Shown here: one piece after another, positions 12,001 through 24,000 of the stretch
Numbering within the stretch: position 1 is the first letter of the stretch
Layout: each line of letters opens with the position of its first letter
Made by a program: the position numbers
NCBI GenBank assembly: GCA_044869275.1
Contig: JBIOXB010000211.1
Span: 1 to 64,000 of the forward strand
DNA: 64,000 nt
From: a bacterium
Lineage (GTDB): Bacteria; Zhuqueibacterota; Zhuqueibacteria; Zhuqueibacterales; Zhuqueibacteraceae
Direction of reading: 5' to 3'

Positions 12001-15000
12001 GATCAATTTCGGCAAAGAGGGTGAGATCTATATCCTGGGTGGTACGCGCTCCGCCGTGAACGAGATTGGCGATACCTCCAATGACGGTATATGGAGTTTG
12101 ACTTTCAATACAAATGCGGTCAAGGTCAAGAAGCGTCTGCTCGAAGGGCGTCATGCTCATGCTCGCGTAATTGGGAAAACAGCTCTTGCAGCATGACGTG
12201 GTGCTGAATGTCCGCCTCCACTTGCGCGGCGGTATTTGGCGAACGCAACCACGTGCGATAGGCAACTTCCAAAAAAGAAACAAAATCCTTCAAAGCGGGT
12301 TGCGGCTCGGGCGCAATCTCATTCAAAACCTCGTACTTGCGCCAAAACTGCGTTATGTATTTTTCCTGGTCCGTCATGATTGTCCTTCGTGCCGTTTTGT
12401 TGAATTCTGTCTGCGATCAAATATAGTCAATTTGTCAATCGTGAACAACACGGATTTTGATGGAAATATACTGGGACATTTCATCCCTCTGGGGATTGAA
12501 TACATTCTTGGTCTGCTTTTGTGATTTCCCCGTTGTGAACCGTGCACCTCCCCGACCTTGACTTCCGCGCGTTCACTCTTCGTTTGAGCTGGTTCAAAAT
12601 TTCCATGCTCAAAACGCCGGGCGCTCTGCCCCAAGACAGAATAACAAGTTACACCGCGTAGCAGCCCTCCATGCAATATAAGTTAAAAGCTTTGCAATAT
12701 AGGTTAGAGATTTCGCCCTCCCTTTTTTCTAAATTAACGCACAATTCACGCTCTCATCCTGCACAAGTGAAGCCGAAAGTGCATCTCAAGTTTTTTATGT
12801 ACAACTCCGGCTTTGTCAATCAAAGGAGGGTCAGCCATGAAATCGAAACTGTATCCATGGGCGTTTTCGAACCTGAGTCGAATGTGCCGTTTCTGCCGGC
12901 TGCGCGACGTGGCCATCACTTCTCTGTTGTTGGTGCTATTTATTGCACTACTTCCGACCTCGGCGTGGCCACAAACGCTATGGATCAAACACAACAATAA
13001 TCCCGTTTTGGATGCCGGGCCGTCCAGCGCGTGGGATGGCGGACGGATTTTCTATCACTTCATCTTTTTTGATGGAGCACAATACCGCATGTGGTACACC
13101 GGATACAATCCCACTTTGAACGCGCGGCCGGCAATCGGTTATGCGGCCTGGACCTTCGGACAGTTGGGATGATTCCGGTGCGGTCGCAACCTCCGTCCAC
13201 TACGATGGCACAACCTACAAAATGTGGTACGAAGGCGTCACTGGCATCGGGCGTGCGATTTCTTCCGACGGTATTCAATGGACCAAAGACCCGGCCAATC
13301 CTATGTTTGATGGGGACGCGCTGCAAAATTGGGAAAGCCAGGGAGTCGGACATCCTCGCGTCCTCTTTGACGGCCAAAAGTACCGACTTTGGTATATCGG
13401 CGTAGACGAAAAGGTCGACATCCGCATTGGATATGCCAATACTCCGTTGACGCACGATATGATGGTGGCTTCATTTCCAGAGCATCTGCAGAGAGTGCCC
13501 AAGCTCGCGAATGTTGCACCGAAGGTAATGCTCATGAATGCCGGCTTGAATGACGAATCCAACCTCGCCGTCACTTGTCAGATTGATTCCGCCGGGGTGA
13601 TCGTTTATTCGGATAAACAGGGCCTCACGCTTTTGCAAAGCCTCGCAACACGCGAAGTCACCTTCAAAAACTGGTGTACCTTCGGCGAGAAAAGCTACCA
13701 ATTTTCTTTCTTCACCATGAGATTAACCAACGGCGAGAACATCTTTAATGATACATTGCGAACAACCGTCAGCGTATCCAATCTCCTGGATGACTTTGAA
13801 ACTGGCTTTGGCAAATGGACTTCTGCCACGGGCTGGGGCATCAACGGCCAACGTTTTCATTCCGGCAAGTTCAGCATGGATGACAGTCCAACGGGCAATT
13901 ACGGCAACAACGTGAATAGCGCGGTGAATTATAATTTCAGCTTCGATCTTTCAGGGCAAAGCGCGGCGCACTTGTCGTATTGGAGTTGGAATGTTCTTCA
14001 ACCCAATGACTTCGGTTATGTCGAAGTGAGCACGGACAGCGGCGCGACTTGGAATCAACTCGGCGCGCGGCATGAAGGCGTGCAGCGCAGCTTCACGCAA
14101 GAATACCGCTCGCTCACGCCTTATTGCGGGCCCGGCTTCACAGATGTAAGAATCCGCTTCCGTCTCGTGACTGACGCGAGCGGCGTTTTTCCGGGCTGGA
14201 ATTTGGATGATATCGAAATTCACGAAGGCGAGTCGCCCACTGCCGTTGCGGAACAAGAGCCTCAAGGCGTGCCCCAAACGTTTGCTTTGCTCGGCAACTA
14301 TCCCAACCCCTTCAATCCCGAAACCACAATTGAATATCAATTGCCGCGGCCGGGCCGAGTCGAAATCGCAGTTTACAATCTTGCCGGACAACTCGTTCGC
14401 ACGCTACTCCAAGCACCTCAACCCGCCGGAAGATTCAAATTAAGATGGGATGGCAAAGATGATCGCGGTGCGAATGTGGCCTCCGGCGTTTATCTGTATC
14501 AATTGCAAGCGGAAGGATTTTCTGCAACCAAAAAGATGGTTCTGATGCGGTGAAGGCGCGGAGGGCCTGGCATTTGTTACTTTGATTTTTGAGAGTCACC
14601 GGGAGCGAAGTCGAAAGGTATTGTCTTGGTTCGACTTCGCTTCCTGCTGATGACGGGGTTTGAATTCGTGCTCAATGCGACTCATACCCCTTCAACCCGC
14701 CGCGCGGCGCGATGAGCTTGAAATTCTGCAGCGACAATTCCACCTCCAGCTCATCGACCTCGATGAATTCTTTTCCATCTTTTATCATCACCGGCACATT
14801 TGAGAGCTGCAAAATTTCTTTGAATTTCGCCAAGGACTTTGCCCAATCGTGTTGATTCATTTCTTTGAGAATGCCGTGGGCGTATTGAAACGACTCGAGA
14901 CGGTTCTTGGGATCAAAGAAAAAGAAATTGCCGCGCGAGGCCCCGCCGAGCAGCTTGGTGCCAAGATACGGCCGGTCGTTGGTGCGCAACTTGCCGGCCG

Positions 15001-21000: not shown

Positions 21001-24000
21001 AGAAATTCACGCAGGCATTGCACAGCGCGCAATTCACATGCAGCAGCTCGGGAATCTCGCGTGCATGGCCAATGCGGGCGCCGTAGGTGCAGGCATTTTC
21101 GTGGCTGCACATGCCACAGCGGATACAGGTTTCGGGATCGATAAAAAGCTTGCCGTATTCATAGCCGCGCGGATAAATCACCTTCAACCCGTGCTGCAAA
21201 TGCGATTTTTCTTCTTTTTGTTGCGCGAGCGTGTGCGGCAAATACTGCGGACTCTCCTTCATGATTTGCCAGAAGCGGTCGATGAACTCGGTCTTCTGCG
21301 GTTTGTTGAGACCCAGCGCGCGAATGAAATTTTGATCCGCTTCGACCATGTCGTAAAGCCGGGTGAGCGGAATGTCAGTCGGGCACACGCGCGTGCAGTT
21401 GTCACAGCGCGTGCACACCAGGAAGCCCAGCGCTTCTGCTTGCGAGATTGCTTCGCCGGCGGCAATGCGGTTCGCGGTTTTGCGCCGCGTGATGGGCGTC
21501 GCCGCACCGAGCAGGCCGAACACGTCCGAGGTCGGGCACACGCGCTCGCAACTGTCGCATTCCGCGCACACCGCCGTGATTTCCGCCAGCGGGTGGCGTT
21601 CCGCTTTCAATGTGGAAGGGACCACTTTCGGGAAAAGCAGCGTGCCGATTTTCCAAATGGCGCCACTCAGCGGATTTTTGAGGTAGCGCTGCGGATCTTC
21701 CGCATTTTTATCGAACAATCTCACCAGGATTTCCTGCGCGCGCACCATGGCGTTAAAAGCAAAACGCGGAAGCAGGCGTTGCTTGCTGGCATTCAGAAAT
21801 TTGCCGCGATTGAGCAGCCTGCGCTCGTCGCTCCGGGCCTTCAGCGCTGCCAGCTTCTCATATTTTTGCGGGAAGGATTTTTTGAAGGCGCGCAGGAACG
21901 GCAGATTCCAGATGCCGATGCCGTACGGTTTCGCGCCGAAGTGCAGCGCCATTTGCGTCATATACGGCACCAGGGCGAAGTACAATTTGTGGCGGAAAGT
22001 CTTGGTGTCGGCCAGCAAAATGGATTGGATCAACATCTCTTCCGGGTTGATCACGTGGCCTTCGGTCTTGATTTCGAGATCGAGCAGCTCGCGCAAGGTA
22101 CGGCGCAGCAGCTGCATGTATTGTGGAAACGCCGCAAGCGGAATCACGGTCTCGCTCACCAGCATCGAAGGGCCTTTTTGCTTCATCTGCACCGGCTTGT
22201 AGCGATGCTCCCAAAACCTGTGCGCGAGCGCGGTGGGCAATTGGCGATAACTCAGTTGCCCGTGGCGCAAAGACGCGCCGCTGGCGCCGAACAACCGCGA
22301 GCGCACAGCCAACTCGTAATCTTCCGCGGTGTCGAAATTGAGCACGAGCACGTGATCCGGCTCACCCAGGGGGTGCAAGGCCTGCAAATCTTCGCGCGCC
22401 TCCTGCAGCCGTTTTTCATCGTCATGGGCGAGCGCGCGATGCGAAGCTTCTGCGAGATGCTCGCGTTCGATTTCGACCGTGAGTTTGATGAATTCACGAT
22501 CGAAATAAATGATCGAAGAGGGCCGCAGGCTTGCCTGGCCAACCAATTGGATAAACTCTCGCGCCGCCTCGCGCGTGGGCAATACCAGTGCAAACGGCTT
22601 GCTCGCGGTTTCGTATTCCTTCACCTGAACGCGCGCGCCCACGACCATGCCGAGCTGGCCTTCGCTGCCAAAAAACAGATCGAATTCTTCTTCGTCTTTG
22701 TGCAAAGCCTTGAGCTCGCCGCGCGGTGTGATCACCAGCAGCGCCTCGACGGAATTCTTCACCGCACCGTATTTGTACGCCCCTATGCCAAGGCCGCCGG
22801 TGACGATCCAGCCGCACAACGTGCCGCTGTTAGGATTGGTGATGTCCTGCCGCAAAGCCAGGCCGTGATCCTTCAACGTCTTGCGCAATGTGGGAAACAA
22901 TGCGCCCGCGCCCACCGTGATCATGTGCGCGGCGGCATCGACCTGCACAAAGTCGAGATAGGAAAGATCGAGAATCTTGGCGCCTTCGAGCGGGATGCAG
23001 CCGCCGAACGGCCACGTGCCGGCGCCGCGGATGGTGTAATGCACTTTGTGCTGATACGCCCACTCCACGAACTGGCGTGCGTCGGCAACGCTCACCGGCC
23101 GCACGATGAAAGAAAACTTGATATCGACCAAAAGCTTCTTAAACAACCGCGGCACCATGGCGGTGCCGGTGTCGTTGCCGTAAATCTCTTTTTGTACTTC
23201 ATCGGGCACGAAGATTTCGGTTTCCTTGGAAAGCCGCTGGCGCAGCTCGGTTACCGCGGCCTCGTTGAGCGCCGGTGCAGCGGCGCCGTTTGGCAGCGCG
23301 CTGAATCCACGAAAGAGCAATTGCCGCGCACGACGCTGCTCGGCCACGCGCTCAGCACTCGAGCTCTGCAAAAGAAAATCAAATGGCGAGCCGGAGGAAG
23401 CAGCCGGTTGATCTCCATTGGCGCCAGTTTGCTGCCATGCACGGCGGCGCAACAAGCTTGTGGATGAACCGGCACGGTCGGCGTAGTCCAGGTGGGGAGC
23501 AGTCGAGGCCATGAGGTGTTCTCCTGAGGTGAAATGATTGGCGCAAATGCAAAATGCCCCGTCCGTTCCTGGTGCATGATCTCATGAGCTACCGGCGCAG
23601 AGGAACGAGAGGGGCATTGGCCCGAAAAGAATAAGTTTTATTCGCGCTGCATAATTTTTCAGAAGTGCGTGGATAACATTCAAGCGTTATCGTGTGGCAG
23701 GAGAATAGTGAAATTTATTTTGCCGCGCAAAGAGATTTTTTGAGCAGCGCCTTGTTATTGTGCTGAAGGGATCATTTTAAACTAAAGGGAACTGCGGGAG
23801 AATTCGTTGGTTGTGGCGCTGCGCGGGAAGAATAGGCTGGGATAATGAGTGTTAGATTTGCAATGATGTAAGTCTAGCAAGAGGGTGATTGATTCCTTAG
23901 ATCTTGACACCACGCTCTTCCACCATTCGTAACAACATGTCTCTAAAATGGACAAACCCAGGGAATCTTACTGGCAAATATAAACATCTCACCCCTTGTG

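Follow-up and report, generated by a model that had tools for sequence, protein, structure and literature searches.

The window analysed here is a 64,000-nucleotide stretch of a bacterial contig, and its minus strand carries, at 14672..23512, a single stop-free frame of 2,946 aa (predicted precursor 332 kDa), with a ribosome-binding-site-like AGGAG (23521..23525) 8 nt ahead of the ATG. From the N- to the C-terminus the minus-strand gene encodes a VAO/PCMH-type FAD domain (residues 95-575; 21788..23230), two 2[4Fe-4S] ferredoxin modules (residues 640-720; 21353..21595 and residues 786-842; 20987..21157), a first barrel (residues 891-1300; 19613..20842), an FMN/synthase barrel (residues 1340-1937; 17702..19495), a linker (residues 1938-1976; 17585..17701), a class-II (Ntn) glutamine amidotransferase (residues 1977-2540; 15893..17584), a weakly conserved helical connector (residues 2541-2660; 15533..15892) and a GXGXG beta-helix (residues 2661-2946, with the stop codon 14672..15532). 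The frame and the database matches given in an earlier note on this DNA were confirmed, both for Pfam (FAD_binding_4 135-268, Fer4_17 649-714, Glu_synthase 1412-1597 and 1690-1918, GATase_6 2304-2365, GXGXG 2722-2874) and for the PDB (LctD 7qh2_C, 1.4e-14, residues 136-347; large chain of glutamate synthase (GltS) 1ea0, 7e-25, residues 1783-1936). We likewise found the 216 homologues reported, with 72 of the 120 matches listed being full length (query included, 52-100% identity; the note had given about 70). The family is real and widespread, but it is wider than claimed, consisting of three deep clades plus split and permuted forms. Conservation was assessed in an alignment of 107 proteins, 72 full-length members of the query's clade (F1) and 35 of a sister clade (F2). 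That assembly or annotation has fused adjacent genes has a negligible chance of being true: split forms do occur naturally, e.g. a FAD-ferredoxin gene immediately upstream of a ferredoxin-barrel gene (locus L235), but the full-length proteins (72 F1, 35 F2) come from several independent sources and their open frames are also present on multi-megabase contigs. As the full-length form recurs independently, we exclude such an artefact.

All 16 cysteines of the ferredoxin modules (C649-659 and C700-710 in the first, C796-808 and C828-838 in the second) are invariant in 107/107 proteins, as the note had it for four CxxCxxCxxxC motifs, except that the third motif reads CxxCxxC-x5-C. The two barrels, both described there as GltS-type FMN barrels, are of different kinds. 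On inspection, the sequence of the first lacks the GEGG, QGAK, GGTG and Cys-triad motifs of the synthase, while it has an SGMG loop and a Met (M916) aligned to the Met479 loop of GltS; in profile comparison it scores higher against the GltS central domain (P 95.9) than against the FMN domain (P 89.9), and when searched on its own against PDB profiles it retrieved nothing beyond generic phosphate-binding barrels and the FMN end of GltS. Modelled together, residues 891-1937 superimpose as a single unit on the central and FMN domains of 1ea0 (residues 452-1182; Z 28.4, rmsd 4.1, 610 aligned), a packing match that is not fully independent because AlphaFold2 has been exposed to GltS structures. In the model and by these profile comparisons, barrel 1 therefore behaves as the GltS central domain, an assignment that refers to a match in sequence profile and model and not to shown descent; two working FMN barrels are ruled out. 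The second barrel does conform to the description. Its invariant residues K1574, R1594, T1792, E1458 and E1705 correspond to GltS K937, R957, the GGTG Thr, the GEGG Glu and E978, which we take to act in 2-oxoglutarate binding and coupling, and the [3Fe-4S]-type ligand triad C1864/C1870/C1874 (17891..17923) is kept in 107/107 proteins, as claimed. Its helical insertions are clade-specific. Beside the flavin, clade F1 differs from ordinary GltS by K1430 for Met and E1546 for Gln (72/72), and the FMN-site Lys is replaced by Ala (A1568) in 72/72 F1 proteins and by Ala or Thr in F2; judging from these residues, specificity could differ from that of ordinary GltS. Single-barrel genes fetched from seven genomes encode stand-alone FMN proteins and have no amidotransferase neighbours.

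The amidotransferase was said to start at an invariant Cys2281 (16670..16672), released by a cut at Ser2280|Cys2281. This residue turned out to be variable (53 Cys, 7 Ser, 7 Ala and 5 Asn among 72 aligned proteins, i.e. non-Cys in 19; Met in 3/3 third-clade proteins) and is aligned to an inner strand of GltB, which rules it out as nucleophile. Instead, the domain begins 304 residues earlier, at Cys1977 (17582..17584), which lies in the context Asn|Cys-Gly-Val and is invariant in 107/107 homologues of clades F1 and F2 as well as in 82/82 full-length locus ORFs, a set overlapping the 107. Profile comparison aligns Cys1977 with Cys1 of GlmS, and the VIA structural alignment places it (model residue 28) on residue 1 of GltS, PurF, AsnB and GlmS. 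With C1977, R2003, R2310, N2335, G2336 and D2360 invariant in 107/107, the glutaminase residue set is present, and the equivalents of GlmS Cys1, Arg26, Arg73, Asn98, Gly99 and Asp123 are invariant across clades down to 27% identity; the domain also contains an insertion of about 240 aa. Amidotransferase and beta-helix together superimpose on 6s6s (VIA; Z 20.3, rmsd 4.0, 548 aligned). Other comparisons gave weaker matches: profile-profile alignment with 15 ordinary GltBs reached P 18.7, Foldseek returned a best E of 1e-5 with the amidotransferase model, the clear alignment came from VIA only, and the glutamine-binding core (residues 2289-2359) is modelled with pLDDT <50.

The idea that an internal Cys needs release by cleavage stands, with the site moved to Asn1976|Cys1977. 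In homologues across the clades the preceding residue is Asn, Asp or Ala but never Met, so an internal translation start cannot free Cys1977 and is ruled out. The sequence context Asn/Asp/Ala|Cys-Gly-Val is compatible with self-cleaving Ntn precursors, the third clade has E-x-D-A|C at the site, resembling ordinary GltB leaders, and in-frame residues precede the Cys in 15/15 ordinary GltBs fetched. The linker ahead of it, which ends with Asn1976, is predicted to be a propeptide-like leader. Self-processing Ntn precursors (PurF family C44, penicillin acylase, gamma-glutamyltransferase) offer a model for the predicted step, PurF-type precursors being cut in cis before the nucleophile (PMC3207474); here, by contrast, the cut would free an amidotransferase from inside a redox enzyme with several cofactors, and the upstream part would be a catalytic subunit. 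Cys1977 would attack the preceding peptide bond in the same manner, and going by the sequence it probably does so, yielding two chains that remain associated, one of 223 kDa (redox/synthase) and one of 110 kDa (glutaminase/beta-helix). It is unlikely that the chain stays uncleaved, with the internal Cys working without a free alpha-amine or with free ammonia being used and a structural amidotransferase. Such a state would fit the badly modelled glutamine site and the outcome of our searches, in which no leader of about 2,000 residues turned up for any class-II amidotransferase; moreover, beta-lactam and carbapenam synthetases, whose Ntn domain is inactive, appear in the same fold list and align from before position 1. 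However, the whole glutaminase set is invariant in clades as low as 27% identity, and the linker before the Cys is variable, of low model confidence and 39-63 residues long from the barrel end where a pattern allowed measurement (54/72 F1, 16/35 F2 and 5 third-clade proteins).

Glutamate synthase is a core enzyme of nitrogen assimilation, its known forms are classed by their donor (NADPH, NADH or ferredoxin), and to our knowledge they share one domain order. The giant protein contains all four domains of the GltS large subunit, with catalytic positions invariant and, in sequence and model, packed as two GltS-like pairs. Indeed, it has the features of GltB (amidotransferase with Cys1 and glutamine residues, a central domain that packs against the FMN barrel in the model, FMN residues and [3Fe-4S] triad, GXGXG domain), but its score with NF008730 is 125 against a cut-off of 1047 and the order amidotransferase-central-FMN-GXGXG is lacking; from its sequence we predict a protein that works like GltB yet is not to be filed as GltB. 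Very probably, as far as the conserved residues tell, it transfers glutamine-derived ammonia to 2-oxoglutarate to form glutamate, the imine being reduced at the FMN. As our main reading, to which we give a probability of about 65%, we propose a one-chain glutamine-dependent GltS of the order FAD-Fd-Fd-central-FMN/[3Fe-4S] barrel-amidotransferase-GXGXG, self-cleaving at Asn1976|Cys1977 and fed by its flavin module. The note's self-contained glutamate synthase is supported in this respect; the literature searched, which took in few subscription journals, yielded no description of its domain order.

The GltS function is supported by glnA linkage in clade F2, by the scarcity of ordinary gltB in carrier genomes and by the natural permutant P0257, which has its amidotransferase at the N-terminus (Cys79). 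Among the 51 F2 loci whose 5' flank could be used, 38 have a co-directional glnA no more than 500 nt upstream (25/37 proteins after thinning at 90% identity), although these 38 loci come from one related clade and do not amount to 38 independent events. The statement that the gene stands alone thus holds for the query's clade, with glnA nearby in 0/54 loci and no nitrogen genes found near the gene, but not for F2, where it sits in a glnA operon. Ordinary gltB was found in 5/29 carrier genomes compared with 53/96 others, and in a second phylum in 6/35 carriers compared with 23/51 non-carriers; the genomes are incomplete and related, and 43/96 and 28/51 of the non-carriers, respectively, lack it as well. 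Little probability remains for GltS-like machinery with another outcome, i.e. amination of another 2-oxoacid, reverse glutamate oxidation or an activity like that of N-methylglutamate synthase (MgsABC). The clade-specific changes beside the flavin (K1430, E1546, A1568, L1551) would suit it, as would the lack of nitrogen genes in F1 loci and the coexistence with ordinary gltB in 10 other genomes and in the genome under study, whose gltB scores above the NCBIfam cut-off. However, K1574, R1594, T1792, E1458 and E1705 match the catalytic positions of GltS, and amtB, P-II and glnD genes accompany 8, 7 and 6 of 78 F2 loci. MgsABC, furthermore, is linked to a type III glutamate-ammonia ligase (GmaS), while the F2 neighbours are type I GlnA in 5/5 cases tested, passing TIGR00653 and falling below the cut-off of TIGR03105 (type III, GmaS).

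The electrons of the proposed GltS would pass from a donor to FAD and through four [4Fe-4S] clusters and the [3Fe-4S] cluster to FMN, so that the FAD-ferredoxin module would stand in for GltD. For the donor, the note had proposed a 2-hydroxyacid, which was not borne out. We consider it improbable that a GlcD/LctD-type site here oxidises a D-2-hydroxyacid, be it lactate, glycolate or 2-hydroxyglutarate, since the FAD domain is devoid of the metal-binding and catalytic residues of D-lactate/glycolate dehydrogenases. It is true that LctD is the best PDB profile match of the domain (1.3e-36), that R437, equivalent to the carboxylate-binding Arg, and H486, aligned to the first metal His, are kept in 107/107 proteins of F1 and F2, and that 2-hydroxyglutarate would supply both electrons and carbon skeleton. 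However, the likeness is limited to the FAD-binding half: of the His/His/Glu metal triad only the first His aligns, the second (HxxDGNxH) is absent, and Glu-His of the EHG motif is Pro-Tyr (PYG), with Tyr530 in 107/107 in place of the catalytic His, a position set by flanking motifs as the alignment is weak in this half. In mouse LDHD the metal is coordinated by His398, His405 and Glu442, with His443 acting as the base, and changing any one of them to Ala abolishes activity (PMC10589216). Even H486 is Tyr in 2/3 third-clade proteins, just 37% of 70 close stand-alone relatives have His at this position, [GA]EHG occurs in 0/147 newly listed profile matches, and the GlcD model score is 60 (cut-off 568). 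The domain rather belongs to a separate VAO/PCMH subfamily with the motifs W-x-x-R...K/R-x-x-G-P and Y-G-x-G-x-W, of which our searches found no characterised member; in the ESM Atlas, all that came up were FAD/4Fe-4S clusters with automatic names. W434, R437, K444, E454 and Y530 are kept, and our guess is that the donor would hand over a hydride in a pocket that is basic and free of metal (R437, K444, E454, Y530). NAD(P)H could be that donor, some other anionic metabolite is a more tentative candidate, and a protein carrier, with the FAD acting as relay, is rather unlikely.

Among known systems, the closest are the alpha subunit of NADPH-GltS (GltB; Azospirillum 1ea0/6s6s, Bacillus 7mfm) and Fd-GltS (Synechocystis 1ofd), which have in common with the giant protein the four domains, catalytic positions, [3Fe-4S] triad, the pairwise packing seen in our models and a leader before the Cys that requires removal (by predicted cleavage here). 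In contrast to their order amidotransferase-central-FMN-GXGXG, the giant protein has central-FMN-amidotransferase-GXGXG; compared with GltB, its leader comprises 1,976 residues and is functional, structural identity is 14-24% and GltD is missing. Like the eukaryotic NADH-GltS, an alpha-beta fusion, it combines FAD, Fe-S, FMN and glutaminase in one chain, but there the alpha part has the normal order and carries a fused GltD module of adrenodoxin-reductase fold with two clusters (PMC8097209), whereas here the N-terminal VAO/PCMH flavin domain is unrelated and four clusters are present. The split 'archaeal-type' GltS, with separate amidotransferase, Fd-FMN and GXGXG genes (PMC8097209), resembles it in having a ferredoxin module directly ahead of the barrel and modules that can be reshuffled, the giant protein having split relatives itself; it differs in that the latter has two barrels with divided labour and every module fused. 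With LctD, GlcD, LDHD and D2HGDH it shares the FAD-binding fold and the substrate Arg, but not the second metal His, the metal Glu or the catalytic His.

The family thus departs from the shared GltS order and swaps GltD for an unrelated flavin fold. That it represents a further GltS class, a circularly permuted self-cutting polyprotein whose electrons come, through a metal-free VAO/PCMH flavin subfamily, from something other than NAD(P)H or ferredoxin, and by which many uncultured anaerobes without gltBD (KSB1, Calditrichota, Desulfobacterota-type) would mainly assimilate their ammonia, is a speculative idea to which we lean less than to its negation. If it is self-cleaving, a class-II amidotransferase lying well inside a 330-kDa chain would be switched on by the cut. 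The family would account for completion of the GS-GOGAT cycle in many gltB-less genomes. A large, unassigned flavoprotein subfamily, labelled glycolate dehydrogenase or 'FAD-binding protein' in databases, also becomes approachable, because the electron acceptor is predicted here, leaving the donor to find. Finally, since fused, split and permuted forms coexist, it can be tested directly whether GltS arose from modules and whether its central domain is a duplicated barrel.

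The giant gene (window positions 14672-23512, minus strand) translates as a single open reading frame of 2,946 codons, with an AGGAG that resembles a ribosome-binding site 8 nt upstream on the same strand, and its G+C content is 57.8% compared to 54.8% for the genome. Renewed searches reproduced the Pfam and PDB table of the earlier note. The homologue search found 216 proteins, and the following figures rest on the 120 of them that were listed. Among these are 72 full-length members of the giant's own clade F1 (query included, 52-100% identity; source names include KSB1, Zhuqueibacterota, Calditrichota, Gemmatimonadetes and Krumholzibacteria), 35 proteins of ~2,530 aa from the sister clade F2 (Syntrophaceae, Thermodesulfobacteriota, Deltaproteobacteria), which share the F1 domain order minus several insertions, and 13 partial homologues. 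Genome searches added a third clade F3 (3,030-3,300 aa, 23-29% identity) with the domain order of the giant. In the alignment of 107 listed homologues, from which the 13 partial ones were excluded, 407 of the 2,946 positions are invariant. An artefact is excluded, as the protein recurs at full length in F1 and F2.

Taken together, our data point, with a probability of roughly two in three, to a self-cleaved protein that forms an assembly like ordinary glutamate synthase (GltS) and receives electrons via FAD and clusters. The giant chain would fold, Cys1977 would then cut the bond in front of itself, and the two pieces would build the GltS-like assembly; glutamine-derived ammonia would meet 2-oxoglutarate at the FMN, with electrons running from the FAD through four [4Fe-4S] clusters to the [3Fe-4S] cluster.

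Sequence and model together place the amidotransferase nucleophile at Cys1977, in the context Asn|Cys-Gly-Val-Ala-Ala followed by Asn-Arg-Gly. This Cys is found in 107 of 107 aligned proteins among the listed homologues, as well as in all 82 full-length ORFs from the loci (the sets overlap), and HMMER puts it on GlmS Cys1 in a low-scoring segment of correct order. By the same method R2003, R2310, N2335, G2336 and D2360 fall on GlmS Arg26, Arg73, Asn98, Gly99 and Asp123; all are invariant in the 107 listed homologues aligned, and from the roles of the GlmS equivalents we take them to be the glutaminase residues. In a model spanning residues 1950-2946 (pLDDT 79.8), Cys1977 is residue 28, the first residue aligned, and lies on residue 1 of GltS, PurF, AsnB and GlmS; amidotransferase and beta-helix superimpose jointly on the GltS structure 6s6s (Z 20.3, rmsd 4.0, 548 aligned). 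The choice of the earlier note, cleavage at Ser2280|Cys2281, does not hold: Cys2281 is Cys in 53 of the 72 listed F1 proteins (Ser in 7, Ala in 7, Asn in 5) and Met in 3/3 F3 proteins, and aligning profiles with ordinary GltB, the GltS large subunit, puts it on an inner strand. Two findings count against the assignment to Cys1977, namely a pLDDT <50 over the conserved glutamine site (residues 2289-2359) and the weak profile match of the giant's amidotransferase to 15 ordinary GltBs (P 18.7). Beside these stands the alternative of a protein that stays uncleaved or uses ammonia, which we consider unlikely next to the invariance of Cys1977 and its putative glutaminase residues.

Members of the Ntn family require a free amine. 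In GltS the N-terminal Cys is reported to be essential, the C1A variant being inactive (bioRxiv 2021.04.12.439528), and PurF-type precursors are described as cleaving themselves in cis (PMC3207474). By analogy, we infer that the giant precursor is probably cut before Cys1977, with predicted products of 223 and 110 kDa. The preceding residue is Asn in 72/72 F1 and Asp in 35/35 F2 proteins listed, Ala in F3, and never Met; the F3 context E-x-D-A|C is that of ordinary GltB. Leaders also occur in ordinary GltBs, where in-frame residues precede the Cys in 15 of the 15 fetched, and are indicated in GltS structures (residue numbers in 6s6s run 36 apart from those in 1ea0, and 7mfm is numbered from 22). 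The linker before Cys1977 is variable in sequence and of low confidence in the model. A natural circular permutant of 3,152 aa (P0257) has the order amidotransferase (Cys79)-GXGXG-FAD-Fd-barrel-barrel, which shows that the amidotransferase module starts at the Cys1977 equivalent and can head a chain. Its 78-residue leader before the amidotransferase resembles a signal peptide. In another protein, P0314 (3,444 aa), FAD-Fd-barrel-barrel stands at the end of a giant chain with a similar leader and large insertions, and no amidotransferase was detected in it.

Two FMN barrels had been proposed, but GEGG, QGAK, GGTG and the Cys triad each occur once, in barrel 2. Barrel 1 appears to play the role of the GltS central domain, as argued by its joint superposition with barrel 2 on the GltS structure 1ea0 and by profile scores. 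In a model spanning residues 780-1976 (pLDDT 79.9, pTM 0.79), residues 891-1937 superimpose on 1ea0 452-1182 as a single body (Z 28.4, rmsd 4.1, 610 aligned; ~290 residues for single FMN barrels in the same comparison), a packing match that is partly learned because AlphaFold2 knows GltS structures. In GltS the glutaminase domain is reported to span 1-422, the central domain 423-780 and the synthase domain 781-1202, and Met479 to lie close to the [3Fe-4S] cluster (PMC8097209). In profile comparisons barrel 1 reaches P 95.9 with central domains, P 89.9 with FMN domains and P 98.2 with barrel 2 of the giant itself. Its SGMG falls on the Met479 loop in the central-domain profile alignment, though M916 itself is replaced by Thr in F2 and F3. 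It may be an independent duplicate. Barrel 2 keeps K1574, R1594, E1705 and T1792 (GltS K937, R957, E978 and the GGTG Thr) in 107/107 aligned proteins among the listed homologues. Lys1430 and Glu1546, present in 72/72 listed F1 proteins, stand in place of the Met and Gln of ordinary GltS and the other clades; this paired charge change beside the FMN (residues 1430-1546, window 18875-19225, minus strand) may alter FMN potential or specificity. The FMN-site Lys is absent at 1568 in F1 and F2, where K1548 is gained.

Regarding the electron donor, Arg347, His398, His405, Glu442 and His443 of mouse LDHD are each reported to be essential, and these five to be conserved in D2HGDH and GlcD (PMC10589216). 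In LctD/LDHD alignments, where this half aligns weakly, the giant keeps the Arg (R437) and the first His (H486); the second His is missing, and Pro-Tyr stands in place of Glu-His. Judged from its sequence, the FAD domain lacks the site of a 2-hydroxyacid dehydrogenase and falls outside the GlcD/LctD active-site pattern, so that a 2-hydroxyacid donor, as the earlier note had it, is improbable despite R437 and H486. When 1.84 billion representatives were searched with a profile, 150 proteins were listed, 147 of which had not been met before; [GA]EHG occurs in none of these 147 and HxxDG[NS] in one. W434, R437, K/R444 and E454 are widely kept among the 135 of them with 450-1,300 aa, and H486 is not. 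Stand-alone proteins of the FAD or FAD-ferredoxin type are numerous in the list, some of them carrying CCG domains, and four relatives that were scanned are FAD-Fd-Fd-barrel 1. Distant matches were also examined at five loci of the planctomycete set: in two (L235, L236) an Fd-barrel 1 frame comes immediately after the FAD-Fd module, one has the CCG form, and two lie, judged from their sequences by eye, amid haem and cytochrome c genes. These loci suggest that the closest split forms of the module are partners of giant-type GltS. More distant relatives of the FAD module in surroundings of haem biosynthesis and of cytochrome c assembly, again by eye, are those at L237:7476-10132 and L238:8962-10560. 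One relative of the module, P0267 (1,391 aa), follows three glycine-cleavage H (lipoyl) domains and precedes Fd and CCG, an arrangement that makes a lipoyl protein a candidate donor for this flavin subfamily.

The gene does stand alone in the window, among unrelated secreted and signalling proteins, and glnA was found at 0/54 F1 loci, but F2 is glnA-linked: of the 51 F2 loci whose 5' flank could be used (78 fetched), 38 have glnA in the same orientation no more than 500 nt upstream, as do 25/37 proteins after thinning at 90%. carA follows the F2 gene in 35/78 loci and carB in 29/78, with amtB (8/78), P-II (7/78) and glnD (6/78) nearby. The neighbouring glutamine synthetases were type I GlnA in 5/5 tested. 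One locus (L102:2036-18934) holds a tandem pair of type I glnA genes with giant-gene sequence after each.

Ordinary gltB occurs in 5/29 genomes carrying the giant gene vs 53/96 others in the window's class (125 genomes including the unpublished G116 and G120; 3/29 carriers with short pieces only), and in 6/35 carriers vs 23/51 others in a second phylum including Calditrichales (86 genomes; matches at E 1e-125 or better, excluding one ambiguous partial match and 470-610-aa stand-alone FMN proteins). The Fisher values (3e-4 and 0.01) are too favourable, since these genomes are incomplete and related to one another, and roughly half of the non-carriers lack both genes. In 5/5 further carriers the giant is the sole strong Glu_synthase match. 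Against a GltS role, the window genome has its own ordinary gltB (L061:1-4317 on G000:C68, minus strand; 1,262 bits, cut-off 1,047; 10-residue leader before the Cys), whose gltD partner is out of view because the gene reaches the contig end, as well as a GltD-like gene below cut-off and two glutamine synthetases. A different acceptor or direction of reaction seems improbable; the rival readings are not all mutually exclusive.

The giant probably works like GltS, yet lies outside GltB by domain order and cut-off. Full-text literature searches listed no description of this architecture, although the gene could be mentioned in subscription papers, or in supplements, that deal with Calditrichota or KSB1 genomes. 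The fusion is already annotated, members being labelled 'glutamate synthase domain-containing protein 2/FAD/FMN-containing dehydrogenase' in databases, though unstudied as far as we found.

In three related genomes, the stretch coding for residues ~2270-2350 is repeated in 2-5 decayed copies at a spacing of 1-2 kb (loci L219 (G090:C45:1-9000), L220, L221 and L222), with cassette genes between them that are Fic-like and ATPase-like by eye; this resembles a hotspot of integration within the giant gene, accompanied by duplication of the target. A divergent group of GltBs of ordinary order (loci L178, L179, L183) starts with Cys-Ala-Ile-Ile and has an altered C-terminal beta-helix region. The window further holds a 628-aa ORF (556-2442, plus strand) fusing a radical SAM CofH/MqnC-like domain to a menaquinone-biosynthesis (MqnA/MqnD-type) domain, an AbiEii/DUF6036-like nucleotidyltransferase (11603-12283, minus strand) and an antitoxin-like and PIN gene pair (28313-29109, plus strand).
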